Notes under the pieces: generated by a model | What the model was told of the DNA's origin: nothing | Seen by the model: only the letters and a program-made list of their open reading frames with translations | Databases searched by the model: none | In this document: positions 9,132-18,227 of the stretch, one piece after another | How positions within the stretch are numbered: position 1 is the stretch's first letter | Layout: every line of letters starts with the position of its first letter | Program-made: the position numbers and the translations under genes | Assembly (NCBI GenBank): GCA_900299355.1 | Contig: OMJR01000125.1 | Coordinates: 1-36,375, forward strand | DNA from: Anaerolineaceae bacterium | GTDB taxonomy: Bacteria; Chloroflexota; Anaerolineae; Anaerolineales; UBA11579 | Direction: 5' to 3' | DNA: 36,375 bases

Positions 9132-10751
9132 ATGGCCCTCACATTGGAACCGCAATCGAAAACGTCTCTGACTCAATCGCTGCGCGATGGCGCGGCGGGT
9201 TTGTTTGGTGCGCTGGCGCCACGGCCGCCGGCTGCCCTCGGCTTGCACCACTACGATGTGGTGTTGCCGGATGGGCGCGAGATGCGCATCCATTTGCGCA
9301 TTGAGCCCAGCGGGGCGGGAGTGCTCTTTGTGGATGTCACCGATGTGGTGCATCTGAATCCTACTGCGGCCTATATGGCCCAGTTGGCGCTCGAAGAAGT
9401 GCCGATCGCGTCGGCGCGCGCCCAGGTGGCGGCACGCTACCAGGCGGTGCCCTTGGCCCAGATGGAACGCGAGCTGCGCCAGGTCTACGACATGATTGAG
9501 GAGTTCCGCCACCCGGAGGGCGATTGCCCCACCTGCCAATTGAGCAGCACGGTGGAGATGTCGCCGCTGTTCAGTGTGGAGGTCAACGCGCCCTACAAGG
9601 TAGATGTAGCCCTGACCTACGGCTGCAATAACGAGTGCCCGCATTGCTACAACGAGGCGGACCGGCTGGAGATGCCTTCACTGCCGCTGACCGAATGGTA
9701 TGCCGTGATCGACCGCTTGTGCGAACTGGGTGTGCCGCACCTGATCCTGACAGGCGGCGAGGCCACGCTGCATCCCGATTTGCCCGAGATCATTCGCTAT
9801 GCCGATGGCAAGGGCATGGTGGTGGGCCTCAACACGAATGGCCGGCATATCGCCCACAAGCCGTATATGGACGAGTTGGCCGCCGCGGGCCTCAACCATG
9901 TGCAGGTCACCCTGGCGTCCAATCGGGCTGAATTCCACGACGCGATGATGGGCACGACGGCCTTTGAGCAGACCGTGGCCGGGATCCAGAACGCGGTGGC
10001 CAGCAAGGTGCACGTGATTACCAACACGACCTTGATGCGCAACAACATGGATCACGCCGAGGAGATCATTGAATACATCTATGATTTGGGCATCCGCACC
10101 TTTGCGATGAACGGCATGATTTATTCCGGCGGCGGCTTTGCCCATCCGACTGCGATCCCGGAAGAAGATATGCCGCCGCTGCTGATCCGCGTGCGCGATA
10201 AAGCCAACGAACTGGGCATGCGTTTCCTGTGGTACACGCCCACCGAGTACTGCCGCATGTCGCCAGTGGAACTCGAGGTAGGCGCCAAACGCTGCAACGC
10301 GGGCGAATATTCGCTGTGCATTGAGCCCAATGGCGATGTGCTTCCCTGCCAGAGCTATTACGTCTCGGCCGGCAATATCCTGCACGACCCCTGGGAACAG
10401 ATTTGGGATGGCGAACTGTTCCGCTCGTTCCGCTACCGCGAAGAGGATCCCAAGGGATACGGCCTGCCCGAGAAATGCTGGACCTGCCCGGACCTGCCGC
10501 TATGTGGCGGCGGCTGTCGCATTGAGCGCGAGGCGCGCGACGGGGTGCGCGTAGCCAGCGACGGCGGCGGAGGCTGCTCAGGATGCAGCGGCAGCTGCGG
10601 CACCGGGGCGGCGGCCAGCCATGTGCGCAGCCATGCGCCCACCGCGGGCTACATTCCGCAGGGCGGCTTTGTGCCCAGCCCCAGCGCCACCAGCACCAAG
10701 GTACGCGCCAGCGGGGACATGAGTTTGATCGGGTTGGATGAAATTGGATGA
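9132..10751 (+). CDS. Radical SAM/SPASM enzyme with N-terminal PqqD/RRE-like domain and Gly/Ser/Cys-rich C-terminal extension
   Basis: CNNECPHC (CxxxCxxC), LTGGEA, SPASM Cys array CNAG..C..PCQ..CWTC..CGGGC; N-terminal VHLNPTAA..ARY..ELRQVYDMI winged-helix pattern; tail GGGGCSGCSGSCG. Confidence 0.93.
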   Translation: MALTLEPQSKTSLTQSLRDGAAGLFGALAPRPPAALGLHHYDVVLPDGREMRIHLRIEPSGAGVLFVDVTDVVHLNPTAAYMAQLALEEVPIASARAQVAARYQAVPLAQMERELRQVYDMIEEFRHPEGDCPTCQLSSTVEMSPLFSVEVNAPYKVDVALTYGCNNECPHCYNEADRLEMPSLPLTEWYAVIDRLCELGVPHLILTGGEATLHPDLPEIIRYADGKGMVVGLNTNGRHIAHKPYMDELAAAGLNHVQVTLASNRAEFHDAMMGTTAFEQTVAGIQNAVASKVHVITNTTLMRNNMDHAEEIIEYIYDLGIRTFAMNGMIYSGGGFAHPTAIPEEDMPPLLIRVRDKANELGMRFLWYTPTEYCRMSPVELEVGAKRCNAGEYSLCIEPNGDVLPCQSYYVSAGNILHDPWEQIWDGELFRSFRYREEDPKGYGLPEKCWTCPDLPLCGGGCRIEREARDGVRVASDGGGGCSGCSGSCGTGAAASHVRSHAPTAGYIPQGGFVPSPSATSTKVRASGDMSLIGLDEIG

Positions 10752-10756
10752 GTCTT

Positions 10757-10862
10757 GAGATTGGTGATTAGAGACTGGCGATTAGTAAGTGGTAACTGGT
10801 AATTACTAATCCTGCACGGTCAATCTCCAGTCCCGTGTCTCCAATTACTAGTTACGAATTAC
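10757..10862. repeat. Inverted heptamer array filling the intergenic space
   Basis: gagattg gtgatta gagactg gcgatta gtaagtg gtaactg gtaatta (10757-10805) and caatctc cagtccc gtgtctc caattac tagttac gaattac (10821-10862). Confidence 0.8.
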
Positions 10863-10872
10863 TGTCTTTTCC

Positions 10873-16507: not shown

Positions 16508-16560
16508 TTGATTCGTCCTATGTCCTACGTCCAACGTCTTCCCTATCTACTACCGGCTGC

Positions 16561-16914
16561 TCACCACTTCGGCTTTTCGGTGAGCTGGTAGGTGGCGCCG
16601 CAGTAGGGGCATTCCACCGTGGGCGCACCGGCCACCATGTGGACGTGCTCGGGGCTGAGCGCGCCGCCGCATTGTTCACACTGCAATTTGGAGAGTTCCA
16701 CGTCGCCGGAAATATCAATGTTCAGTTTAACTTCCTGCTGGCCGGCTTCGGCGGCCTTGCGATTGGCGAACCAGATAATTACGAAACCGATGCCCACGCT
16801 GATGGCGCCAATCACAATCCAGCCCGGGCTGCCGTCCTCACTGAAGGCGCCCCATATAAAAAGCACGCCAAAGAAAATCAGAATGGCGGCGGCAATATTT
16901 CCGATGGTCTTCAT
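16561..16914 (-). CDS. Small membrane protein: two TM helices + C-terminal zinc ribbon
   Basis: Two hydrophobic helices; CEQCGG...CPYCG; GGAGG RBS. Confidence 0.87.
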   Translation of the reverse strand: MKTIGNIAAAILIFFGVLFIWGAFSEDGSPGWIVIGAISVGIGFVIIWFANRKAAEAGQQEVKLNIDISGDVELSKLQCEQCGGALSPEHVHMVAGAPTVECPYCGATYQLTEKPKW

Positions 16915-16940
16915 AGGTGTGGGTCCTCCGTGGCTTTAGT

Positions 16941-18227
16941 TTAGCGTATTTTAGGCGGCGGGGCAGGGTCAGCTGTCACCGGCAGATGGCGTGCGCTCCA
17001 CCAGCTGAGCAGGAAGCACAGCGCCGCAATTGCATACAGCATCAGGTAGCCCGCCGAGCGCGTGGCGGTGGCAGCATTGATGGGGTCGACCAGCAAGCCG
17101 CCCAGCAGGCGGGCCACGGCGCCCCCGCCGGCGCTAGCGATATTGGCGATGCCCAGGAAGCGCGCGGTGGCCTCCACCGGCACGATGTCGCTGAGCATGG
17201 CGAAGTTGGCGCTGATGAAGACCCCGCTGCCGATGCCAATCAGGCCGCCGGCCCACATCAGGCTGTCCGGCTCGCGCACGAAGAGCACCGCCACGGTACC
17301 AATCGCGGCCAGCGCGCAGCCCAGCATCACCAGCGGCTTGCGCCCCCAACGGTCGGCCAGGCGTCCGCTGGGCACCGCAATCAGCAGGATTGCGCCGCCA
17401 AGGATGGCGGAAAGCCGGGCCATAAAGCGCTGCGCCTCGGCCTCGGGCAAGCCAATGACGTCAATAATGAAGAGCAGCAAGAAAGTGCCGAGGATGACGA
17501 AGCCGGTCCAAAACAGGGCACGGTTGATAAACCACCAGGTGAAGCCGGGGTTGCCGCGCCAATCCATGTGGAAGCTGCGGCGTAGCGCCTGCCAGGTGCT
17601 CTCCTCGCTGGGCGGCGGGGCGGGCCAGGGATGGCGGCGCACGGTGCGCCAGGTCAGCCACAGGGCGGCCAGCAGTCCGATGGCGGGTACGCTGACTGCG
17701 GCTAAGAGGGCGGATTGACCCAATTCGGGGAAGCGGCCCATCAGTTCCCCGGCGCTGAATCGGCCGACCAAGACGGCCAAAATCTCCAGGAAGGATTTCA
17801 GGCCGGCGGCCAGGCCGCGCTGGCGGGCGGGCACCAGCTCCGGGTAGAGCGCCTGCCAGACCGGCAATATCAAATTGTCGCCCAGGCGGTAGAGCATCAC
17901 GCCGAGCACGAAGACCAGGATGCTGGAGGCCAGCGCGGTGACATACAGCGCGGCAATCATGATGGGCACCCCGGCCAGGAAGAAGGGCAGGCGTGGGCCG
18001 AGGCGCGAATGGGTGCGGTCGGAGAGCACGCCGACGATGGGGCCGGTGATTATCGCCAGCACCGAGGCTGCAAAGGTGGTGTAGCCCAGCAGGGTGTTGG
18101 GCGCCTCGGGGGCCAGGCGCAGCACCAGGTGGCCGAAGACGGCCGGGTCGAGCGTATTGGTCACCAGGGTGACGGCGAAGCTGAAGCTGGAAAGGGCCAG
18201 GAGGGTGGGCCAGGGCAGGCGTTTCAC
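16941..18227 (-). CDS. MFS transporter
   Basis: About 12 TM; motif A GVLSDRTHSRLGPRLPF and GRLADRWGRKP; likely GTG start at 18227, 6 nt after TACACT. Confidence 0.9.
   Translation of the reverse strand: MKRLPWPTLLALSSFSFAVTLVTNTLDPAVFGHLVLRLAPEAPNTLLGYTTFAASVLAIITGPIVGVLSDRTHSRLGPRLPFFLAGVPIMIAALYVTALASSILVFVLGVMLYRLGDNLILPVWQALYPELVPARQRGLAAGLKSFLEILAVLVGRFSAGELMGRFPELGQSALLAAVSVPAIGLLAALWLTWRTVRRHPWPAPPPSEESTWQALRRSFHMDWRGNPGFTWWFINRALFWTGFVILGTFLLLFIIDVIGLPEAEAQRFMARLSAILGGAILLIAVPSGRLADRWGRKPLVMLGCALAAIGTVAVLFVREPDSLMWAGGLIGIGSGVFISANFAMLSDIVPVEATARFLGIANIASAGGGAVARLLGGLLVDPINAATATRSAGYLMLYAIAALCFLLSWWSARHLPVTADPAPPPKIR

Follow-up and report, generated by a model that had tools for sequence, protein, structure and literature searches.

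What does an enzyme of the peptide-maturing kind act on when no peptide appears to be encoded beside it? The question is raised by a locus in an Anaerolineaceae bacterium (Chloroflexota), contained in a 36,375-nucleotide stretch of contig OMJR01000125.1 (assembly GCA_900299355.1), hereafter the window. At this locus, a radical S-adenosylmethionine (SAM) enzyme with a SPASM domain and a paralogue that has lost its iron–sulfur cysteine motifs are encoded together with two related membrane proteins, one of which ends in a repeat of cysteine and alanine. The initial annotation of the window had proposed this tail as the substrate of the enzyme pair, in a chemistry resembling that of RiPPs, peptides made by the ribosome and modified after translation. 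The comparative evidence points to the tail as the best candidate substrate, and it seems probable that the radical SAM enzyme modifies its Cys-Ala core. The whole of the best explanation, a protein-tethered, RiPP-like maturation cassette, is given a probability of roughly 0.4.

Gene content was taken from the listing of open reading frames (ORFs) and from Pfam and NCBIfam profile scans of the window. The tail-bearing membrane protein (14825–16507, minus strand) has 560 residues from its likely start, MKRIW, and the C-terminus SSCACACAGCACACAGGGR. Its last 17 residues, CACACAGCACACAGGGR (residues 544–560; 14828–14878, minus strand), follow the pattern (CA)3-G-(CA)3-GGGR with six cysteines and constitute the candidate modification site. 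The protein has more than 4326 homologues, and those with a named source come from metagenome-assembled genomes of the Anaerolineales, the Anaerolineae or the Chloroflexi. The ending ...CACAGGGR is present in 119 of the 120 best homologues, the remaining one being annotated as partial. An alignment of 60 sequences, including proteins of 33–35% identity, shows no variation at C546, A547 and C551 to R560 and almost none at C544, A545, C548, A549 and G550, with the alanines, the glycines and the terminal arginine as invariant as the cysteines. Clustered at 50% identity, the family of the cytoplasmic domain has 703 representatives in a set of 1.84 billion proteins. Among the best 150 of these, 96 end in ...CACAGGGR, five carry variant CA tails and three have other Cys-rich ends; the other 46 have no Cys-rich end, being fragments or members of a tail-less type of 284 residues that ends in ...ATFYG.

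At the DNA level, a degenerate pattern for the tail was found in 27 of 401 genomes of the phylum, once in each, and the window's genome likewise holds a single occurrence. The matched DNA varies at synonymous positions with the residues kept constant, and the tail appears to be under strong selection at the protein level. A DNA microsatellite artefact was considered and rejected, as the codons differ between genomes, the residues do not, and the reversed pattern, used as a control, occurs in 0 of 401 genomes. A C-terminal sorting signal of the PEP-CTERM or MYXO-CTERM kind was also rejected, because mildly hydrophobic residues in the core number no more than 13 (maximum Kyte–Doolittle hydropathy of 1.25–1.48 over 19 residues), no sortase-type gene is conserved, and the same module also ends a soluble protein.

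In the AlphaFold2 (AF2) model of the tail protein (a pLDDT, or predicted local distance difference test, of 83), a signal or transmembrane (TM) helix at residues 2–18 is followed by a beta-sandwich ectodomain (29–230), a TM helix (242–274) and a cytoplasmic domain (about 285–455) that starts with a winged-helix-like unit and continues as helices; beyond it lies a flexible C-terminal extension with a disordered tail. Hydropathy gives only two TM segments, with ERRRR behind the second, so the last 290 residues are predicted to be cytoplasmic, which would place the tail within reach of an oxygen-sensitive radical SAM enzyme. Upstream of the core, residues ~487–527 (14927–15049, minus strand; LPGGDFAAS...FTGGVTKVTNPPP) form a second conserved block, near-invariant at P489, G490, F493, A494, F515, T516, T520, T523, N524, P525 and P527 and modelled as two helices (490–509 and 512–523, pLDDT ~70). 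This pre-tail segment is a candidate recognition, or leader-like, sequence. In one locus (L106, G303:C160), two tail-protein paralogues stand in tandem (3666–5513 and 5453–7117), both CA-tailed and upstream of one pseudo-enzyme gene.

The enzyme that would act on this tail is encoded at 9132–10751 (plus strand; 539 residues). Its scores of 93.4 bits against PF04055 (Radical_SAM, cutoff 29.5) and 45.8 bits against PF13186 (SPASM, cutoff 21.5; 51.1 bits in the genome scan) place it in the radical SAM superfamily and assign it a SPASM domain. A RiPP recognition element (RRE)-like region at about residues 37–126 precedes the CX3CX2C motif (CNNECPHC, 165–172), the SPASM region (about 388–462) and a C-terminal Cys-rich extension, GGGGCSGCSGSC. 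The cysteines at positions 165, 169, 172, 374, 388, 396, 406, 449, 452, 458 and 462 are invariant in 30 orthologues. A PqqD match lies at the position expected of an RRE, at 18.2 bits and below the Pfam cutoff of 23.4. In the AF2 model (pLDDT 73, predicted template modelling score 0.76) the RRE-like domain, a partial barrel and the SPASM region are visible; the N-terminus consists of strands at 37–44, 50–57, 63–67 and 71–75 and helices at 77–87, 92–102 and 108–126 (pLDDT 81–93), a predicted fold that corresponds to the PqqD-like winged helix of an RRE. Alignment of the model with VIA-align retrieved SuiB (Z 24.8, model residues 41–472), SkfB (24.3), PqqE (23.8), anSME (23.5) and CteB (22.3), and the SuiB alignment begins at model residue 41 and chain residue 4, taking in the RRE region. 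Among proteins of solved structure, PqqE and SkfB are the closest in sequence (SkfB 6efn, E = 8e-14). The model thus points to the architecture of a peptide maturase.

The window's genome (2.1 Mb, 89.8% complete) offers one enzyme and one candidate substrate. Its sole SPASM domain is that of the 9132–10751 enzyme, the only members of this enzyme's family are the two window genes, and the tail pattern is single. No match to PF05114 (MbnB_TglH_ChrH), the profile for oxidative enzymes that depend on multinuclear non-haem iron (MNIOs), was found in this 89.8%-complete genome, with a Caulobacter control detected. As to the region behind the SPASM domain, type A clade enzymes (see below) have a conserved Cys-rich extension with the consensus GGCxGCSGSC, followed by a variable tail, which type B enzymes do not have; the window copy lies at 10560–10600 (residues ~477–490), and it might serve as a site for a further cluster or as a mimic of the substrate.

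With regard to the bond formed, thioether crosslinks are tentatively favoured by analogy, because bonds of this kind are made by SkfB, CteB and CrpC, enzymes of this sort usually act on Cys-rich cores, and the invariant alanines and glycines are possible acceptors; taken overall, this chemistry is held at somewhat below even odds. The enzyme misses the NCBIfam cutoffs for sactipeptide and ranthipeptide maturases (AlbA, 82.6 against 850 bits; SkfB, 65.9 against 300; StsB, 96.9 against 625), a result that suits a different outcome on the same Cys-Ala substrate: formylglycine-like or other Cys-derived groups, C–C crosslinks, epimers or, in conjunction with the methyltransferase, a metal-chelating or redox cofactor. 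In purpose, such a cofactor would resemble the Cys-derived thiooxazoles found in bufferins. Such other chemistry appears possible, if rather unlikely. It draws on the range of structural neighbours, which include SuiB (Lys–Trp C–C bond), anSME (Cys oxidation) and PqqE (C–C bond), on the methyltransferase being a frequent cassette member, and on the proposal, in PMC12452194, that Cys-tail proteins of TIGR04222 are substrates of MNIOs, whose bufferin products chelate copper. It is countered by the observation that most characterised SPASM enzymes acting on Cys-rich cores form thioethers (SkfB, CteB and, according to PMC13692751, CrpC), and by the invariant alanine beside every cysteine, which suits an acceptor role.

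The association of enzyme and tail was followed in a sample of 301 genomes of the class, in which 20-kb neighbourhoods were read: 20 loci of a cassette type B, eight genomes of type A, 12 loci of type C and 15 loci of the window's own family (f1). The gene order in type A is zinc-ribbon protein, active enzyme, pseudo-enzyme, TM protein and methyltransferase; in type B, zinc-ribbon protein, TM protein and active enzyme, in some loci with pseudo-enzyme and methyltransferase; and in type C, a TM protein with an ACHS-repeat tail followed by the enzyme. In all three types, found in related Chloroflexota genomes, a membrane protein with a Cys-repeat tail stands next to a radical SAM/SPASM enzyme of the matching clade. 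The tail protein of type A (626–698 residues) has the same core as that of the window, and that of type C (575–668 residues) ends in about 12 cysteines arranged as ACHS repeats. In 15 of the 20 type B loci, the gene immediately downstream of the tail protein encodes an enzyme with an intact CX3CX2C motif, and in 11 of the 12 type C loci the active enzyme adjoins the tail protein. In six type B loci from the window's own order, the Cys-less paralogue and then the methyltransferase come next. The type B cassette was also found in two genomes from other classes of the phylum.

Among the 300 class genomes, an enzyme of the A/B clade (E ≤ 1e-97) is present in 44 of the 44 genomes with an A/B-type tail protein, and 46 genomes have such an enzyme; the two extra ones are 85% and 89% complete, and in the 89% one the gene sits at a contig start. 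The initial annotation had named tail proteins occurring mostly without these enzymes as the outcome that would speak against it, and no such distribution was seen. These counts describe a pattern and are not a statistical test. In addition, the type of tail tracks the enzyme clade, as ACHS tails occur with the separate clade C enzymes (Shimodaira–Hasegawa-like approximate likelihood ratio test, SH-aLRT, 100).

Two further genes belong with this core. The methyltransferase (8341–9090, minus strand; 249 residues, class I and SAM-dependent, Pfam Methyltransf_11 74.3 bits) is divergent from the radical SAM gene and had been passed over in the initial annotation; it is a member of the cassette, found in nine of 20 type B loci and seven type A loci, also in loci L055 and L123, and beside the radical SAM gene in 11 of the 12 f1 loci that hold the latter. 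The zinc-ribbon protein (16561–16914, minus strand; 117 residues) has two TM segments by TM scan, a C-terminal CxxC...CxxC and weak zinc-ribbon family matches; all 20 type B loci have its homologue immediately upstream of the tail protein, and in the type A cassette it comes first. In type C, the loci of which include L076–L084, a glycosyltransferase of family 4 (GT4) neighbours the tail protein in eight of the 12 loci, in place of the methyltransferase. In the window itself, an AIM24-family gene and a GT4 gene lie at 20068–22054, ~2 kb from the cassette. The presence of GT4 near the window cassette and in those eight type C loci makes a link to glycosylation possible.

The tail module is not confined to membrane proteins. 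In locus L124 (G141:C353) a protein of 1139 residues (990–4409) with a Ser/Thr kinase domain, an AAA_16 ATPase and a TPR region, and with no hydrophobic segment, ends in a pre-tail LPGATFA...FASGVTRQTNPPP, a Gly-rich linker and then CACACACAGCACACAGGGR. This fusion was seen in one genome. A radical SAM gene follows ~420 bases downstream, then a pyridoxal-phosphate-dependent decarboxylase split over two ORFs and a methyltransferase, these downstream genes including ORFs at 4831–6198 and 7922–8728. The presence of the module on a soluble kinase-ATPase indicates that the final ~90 residues and the enzyme make up the functional unit, which is thus not tied to the membrane protein itself, and it agrees with a cytoplasmic tail.

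This portability also bears on a reading in which the tail is left unmodified and serves as a metallothionein-like, iron–sulfur or redox ligand on the cytoplasmic face; the radical SAM enzyme, its dead paralogue and the methyltransferase would then have some other substrate, such as a cofactor, a lipid or a small molecule, which the membrane protein would bind, sense or receive. CxC motifs in alternation are well known as ligands of metals, the top NCBIfam matches of the enzyme include the tetrapyrrole enzymes AhbD and NirJ as well as PqqE, and the exchange of the methyltransferase for GT4 in type C hints at non-peptide chemistry. A simple metal site, conversely, would rarely need invariant alanine spacers and a GGGR end, and would leave unexplained why enzyme and pseudo-enzyme both keep an RRE-like peptide-binding domain, why the module travels with a radical SAM gene onto an unrelated soluble protein and why the type of tail co-varies with the enzyme clade. 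An unmodified tail is, on these grounds, considered improbable.

Still less probable, to the point of being barely credible, is a separate small precursor, unannotated or encoded elsewhere, as the true substrate, with the tail protein as an immunity, export or sensor component. Such an arrangement would follow classical RiPP logic, small ORFs are easily missed, and a gap of 519 bases exists at 13078–13595. That gap, however, flanks a gene that is not conserved, a 386-residue ORF between the two halves of the locus (11917–13077, minus strand) with no Pfam or NCBIfam match, a faint arylsulfotransferase resemblance (E = 0.13) and homologues in one of 15 window-family loci (L100) and none of 20 type B loci. 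As first noted, no small precursor is apparent: a small-ORF scan found no Cys-rich ORF of 15–120 residues in any intergenic gap of the window. Genes abut or overlap in several family loci (L102–L104), leaving no room for one; the tail DNA pattern occurs only once in each of the 27 genomes that have it; and neither a protease nor an ABC exporter is conserved in the cassette across type A, B, C and family loci. The 519-base stretch has a lower G+C content, and a single strong site resembling a promoter, with 10 of 12 positions matching, lies in it at 13392–13363.

The preferred reading, modification of the tail by the radical SAM enzyme, leaves the role of the paralogue to be accounted for. The pseudo-enzyme (13596–14825, minus strand; 409 residues; Radical_SAM 44 bits) is 27% identical to the active enzyme (E = 5e-47), which makes the two paralogues, and it lacks the CX3CX2C motif and all SPASM cysteines, in line with its first description as a radical SAM paralogue without iron–sulfur motifs. 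It keeps an RRE-like N-terminus (PqqD 21.4 bits, under the cutoff), the GGE motif and the barrel. An alignment of 18 members of its family, with a mean column identity of 59%, contains no conserved cysteine; YRLHLR, HLNxTA and FTGGEPTLR are retained, and the proteins stop short of the SPASM cysteines. Translation would begin at the conserved ATG at 14825; this codon shares bases with the stop of the tail protein in the sequence TAATG, read directly from the DNA. The longer frame called for this gene, ORF 13596–14900, is an artefact because the DNA of the Cys-Ala repeat is there read in another frame. Read in that frame, the CA-repeat DNA (14826–14900 in the window, and the orthologous loci) gives Arg/Leu/Cys-rich strings such as RLRLCLRR..., which inflate pseudo-enzyme ORF calls; the same effect probably explains some of the other Cys-rich ends of database proteins. 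The protein is incapable of radical chemistry; its retained RRE-like domain and the translational coupling to the tail protein suggest a role in binding or presenting the substrate.

A curated precedent for a radical SAM family that has lost its cluster cysteines is TIGR04347 (pseudo-SAM/SPASM, Halobacteria), the cutoff of which the window protein misses (54 against 525 bits); the window protein differs from it in also lacking the SPASM cysteines and in having arisen inside its own cassette family. The type A pseudo-enzyme is distinct and keeps part of the SPASM cysteines. In locus L042 (G190:C27), a 551-residue ORF without CX3CX2C (10819–12474) lies directly downstream of the tail protein and resembles the pseudo-enzyme only in the RRE-like N-terminal region (residues 19–149, 114 bits); the active orthologue of that genome is on another contig and appears truncated (299-residue frame).

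How the window came to hold these genes is suggested by a tree of 58 proteins of the radical SAM family (a quick IQ-TREE run with long pseudo-enzyme branches). The active enzyme of the window falls inside the type A clade (SH-aLRT 96–97) and its pseudo-enzyme inside the type B pseudo-enzyme clade (SH-aLRT 100). Pseudo-enzymes of type A group apart from those of type B, and each group is closer to active enzymes of its own type, which suggests two independent cluster losses; the pseudo-enzyme has apparently arisen twice in the cassette family. The second membrane protein of the window (10873–11727, plus strand; 284 residues) corresponds to the tail-protein family in its TM helix and cytoplasmic domain, has neither the ectodomain nor the Cys tail, and is 25% identical to the corresponding part of the tail protein (E = 2e-18, BLASTP). 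It shares 33–40% identity (137–166 bits) with type A TM proteins against 24–30% (52–98 bits) with those of type B, so it would be a type A tail protein minus ectodomain and tail. Its orthologues directly follow the radical SAM gene in 12 f1 loci, and 14 genomes have orthologues at E ≤ 1e-30. The tail-less subfamily has a C-terminus of its own, ...DI(A/S)(R/Q)ATFYG (L095–L108; P0140, P0152, P0155, P0203, P0221 and others), which in the window reads ...IARATFRG.

By these comparisons, the layout of the window is a family-wide merger of two paralogous cassettes. Type A contributed the active enzyme and the truncated, tail-less membrane protein; type B, with its own active enzyme lost, the tail protein, the pseudo-enzyme, the zinc-ribbon protein and the methyltransferase. 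The arrangement of a methyltransferase divergent from the radical SAM and 284-residue protein genes, facing a convergent run of zinc-ribbon, tail protein and pseudo-enzyme genes, is found in nine of the 15 window-family loci, and in one genome of the family the two halves are ~125 kb apart. Two convergent units built from the same two protein families, one of them an intact RRE-radical SAM-SPASM enzyme with a single-TM protein, had been the first description of the locus. The genes, their condition and both paralogies stand, the units being better understood as remnants of merged type A and type B cassettes; tail protein, zinc-ribbon protein and radical SAM proteins keep their membership, and the major facilitator superfamily (MFS) transporter once counted among them does not. 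By way of the paralogous cytoplasmic domains, the 284-residue protein may, speculatively, anchor the type A enzyme at the membrane beside the type B tail protein.

The tail protein had also been called DUF2207-like, a kinship that holds only transitively. Neither Pfam nor NCBIfam has a model for the tail protein, the 284-residue protein or the specific enzymes, and the window tail protein matches neither DUF2207 (PF09972/PF20990) nor TIGR04222 even at E ≤ 5. A type C relative, linked to it at E = 1e-10 to 1e-14, reaches 31 bits for the DUF2207 N-domain (cutoff 24.4), 18 for DUF2207_C (cutoff 33) and 38.3 for TIGR04222 (cutoff 43). The architecture matches that of DUF2207/TIGR04222 proteins, with signal or TM segment, beta-sandwich ectodomain, TM helix, cytoplasmic domain and low-complexity tail. 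When the whole model was compared with the PDB by Foldseek, the matches (ribophorin I/Ost1 and the M1 aminopeptidase N-domain, TM-score ~0.23) were all of a generic beta-sandwich kind and carry no functional information.

Put together, these elements would form the following picture. The 560-residue protein would sit in the membrane with its beta-sandwich ectodomain outside, one TM helix and a helical domain in the cytoplasm, and its cytoplasmic extension would present a recognition segment of ~40 residues, a Gly/Ser linker and the (CA)3-G-(CA)3-GGGR core. The RRE/radical SAM/SPASM enzyme would dock on this extension, the pre-tail segment being recognised by RRE-like domains, and would use the 5'-deoxyadenosyl radical on the core, yielding intramolecular thioether crosslinks from Cys sulfur to carbon, the acceptors being Ala or Gly. 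From the class I methyltransferase might come a further modification, the Cys-less paralogue would be a non-catalytic subunit that binds or presents the substrate, translationally coupled to the tail protein, and the 2-TM zinc-ribbon protein would be a constant membrane partner. The biological role may be, for example, that of a metal- or redox-responsive cytoplasmic module. A bolder version, in which the ~90-residue portable module, borne by a membrane receptor-like protein or a STAND-type kinase, is turned by the radical SAM/SPASM enzyme into a poly-crosslinked or Cys-derived, cofactor-like structure, with the dead paralogue as obligate presenter, a cytoplasmic metal, redox or signalling output and a pseudo-enzyme evolved twice, is doubtful.

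Several findings weigh against this picture. Its support comes wholly from conservation and context, and the co-occurrence counts overstate that support because related genomes are not independent samples. The radical SAM gene is not adjacent to the tail protein in five of the 20 type B loci; an orthologue (328–428 bits) is found elsewhere in all five of these genomes, followed in one of them by the methyltransferase. The methyltransferase is missing from many loci. In all five type B' genomes tested, the sole match to the pseudo-enzyme is the single active enzyme, so the pseudo-enzyme would be accessory and not required for the basic reaction; the active/dead pairing put forward initially is a conserved feature and no local accident, but its dead member is dispensable in many lineages. 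With regard to the enzyme, the PqqD/RRE profile matches are below threshold in Pfam, and the top curated matches are AhbD and PqqE as much as peptide maturases, all far under their cutoffs. Among the cofactor enzymes, the scores are 119.1 against 500 bits for AhbD, 116.1 against 381 for PqqE, 98.5 against 515 for NirJ and 95.3 against 265 for MftC. Enzyme (type A) and tail protein (type B) of the window family have not co-evolved as a pair, the same core motif being present in both types. CxC repeats can bind metals unmodified. More than one chemistry is represented among the structural neighbours, and a methyltransferase so often present hints that the product may be another one or carry something further. 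Complex predictions of the enzyme (residues 25–480) with the tail (455–560), and of the same with the pseudo-enzyme, scored 0.00 in both cases and, being control-free, speak neither for nor against binding.

No description of the cassette was found in the literature on DUF2207 (by title or abstract), on radical SAM/SPASM proteins of Anaerolineae or, among the papers listed, on pseudo-enzymes and RREs, supplementary tables not being covered, and searches with the strings CACACAGGGR, ACHSACHS and CACACAGCACACAG returned only unrelated papers. The statement that no characterised system has this architecture accordingly holds for searchable curated families and papers; it has nonetheless to make room for two precedents, CrpC/CrpA and TIGR04222/MNIO. 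According to PMC13692751 (2026), CrpC of Methanococcus voltae, an RRE-radical SAM-SPASM enzyme, installs ranthionine-type thioether crosslinks on the Cys-rich CrpA. The resemblance is threefold: the enzyme gene has as its neighbour the gene of a Cys-rich protein whose C-terminal Cys motifs are repeated, a protein takes the place of a short peptide as substrate, and the related CrpB may be a helper. CrpA, however, is described there as a soluble archaeal protein of 28.8 kDa with ten 17-residue repeats containing C-x-x-Q/D, whereas the window candidate is a membrane protein with a single invariant 17-residue core at the very C-terminus, its helper is a dead copy of the enzyme, and a methyltransferase and a zinc-ribbon membrane protein are added. 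CrpC is assigned to TIGR04463 in the same paper, and TIGR04463 is not among the best 25 of 60 NCBIfam families for the window enzyme.

The second precedent concerns the membrane protein. In PMC12452194 (2025), the Ser/Gly/Cys tails of TIGR04222 membrane proteins are proposed, without experiment, as MNIO substrates. These proteins belong to a related superfamily and likewise combine low-complexity, Cys-bearing C-terminal tails with a neighbouring RiPP-type enzyme; the enzyme there is an MNIO (DUF692), and the tails are reported in that paper as variable, predicted to be periplasmic and mostly from Actinomycetota. The window cassette differs in its radical SAM/SPASM partner, its invariant tail, the predicted cytoplasmic location and its occurrence in Chloroflexota.

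SkfB, AlbA, CteB and SuiB have the same three-domain architecture and fold as the window enzyme, and sactipeptide and ranthipeptide (SCIFF) maturases share Cys-rich cores as substrates. Those systems use free peptides of ~40–60 residues that carry N-terminal leaders and are afterwards cleaved by proteolysis and exported; the window cassette, in contrast, has no conserved free peptide, protease or exporter, and its candidate recognition segment is just upstream of a C-terminal core in a 560-residue protein. With TIGR04340, the radical SAM family of the ACGX-repeat system (cutoff 400), the enzyme of type C reaches 100 bits; in that system a radical SAM/SPASM enzyme is also paired with short Ala-Cys-containing repeats; the substrates there are small peptides, not tails of membrane proteins. 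In quinohemoprotein amine dehydrogenase (QHNDH), the radical SAM/SPASM enzyme QhpD installs Cys thioether crosslinks in a protein subunit, QhpC, which is periplasmic and carries Cys-to-Asp/Glu links, with no membrane tether, repeat core, pseudo-enzyme or methyltransferase. QhpD/QhpC is also named in the discussion of PMC13692751. The cassette shares the logic of CrpC/CrpA and of TIGR04222/MNIO and is well supported as a conserved system. It differs from both in the class of enzyme that accompanies a membrane protein of this family, in having an invariant core of 17 residues, in the side of the membrane, predicted to be cytoplasmic, in its pseudo-enzyme, and in its zinc-ribbon and methyltransferase partners.

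To our knowledge, nearly all work on radical SAM chemistry of the RiPP kind has dealt with small peptides that are secreted, and we know of few whole-protein examples: QHNDH, sulfatases and, since 2026, CrpA. The present cassette offers a test case that is phylogenetically broad and has an invariant core on a cytoplasmic end. It comes with natural experiments, namely genomes with and without the dead paralogue, three gene orders, the tail chemotypes (CA)n and ACHS, and one kinase fusion, and makes the origin and role of pseudo-enzymes in radical SAM systems directly testable. It could also give a role to the Cys-rich tails of membrane proteins of the DUF2207/TIGR04222 type. Genome-mining tools that seek short precursors would miss such systems.

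Around the cassette, no Rfam family matched in 8000–19000, and a promoter and terminator scan of the same interval gave sites no commoner than in shuffled controls. Contigs from RNA libraries of two metatranscriptome studies match the active enzyme, pseudo-enzyme and tail-protein genes at 100% identity, in short contigs only; they are a weak hint of transcription, as DNA carry-over is possible and gaps in cover are uninformative. The MFS transporter (16941–18311, minus strand; 456 residues; MFS_1 130 bits) has no homologue of at least 45 bits in any of the 20 type B loci, adjoins the cassette in only some f1 loci (L096, L101) and lies elsewhere in others; it and the 386-residue gene are neighbours, not core parts of the cassette. 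Beside the methyltransferase, three small membrane-protein genes (219, 263 and 214 residues) occupy 6069–8281 of the window, and their homologues adjoin the methyltransferase in L095, L097, L099, L100, L103, L105 and L108.

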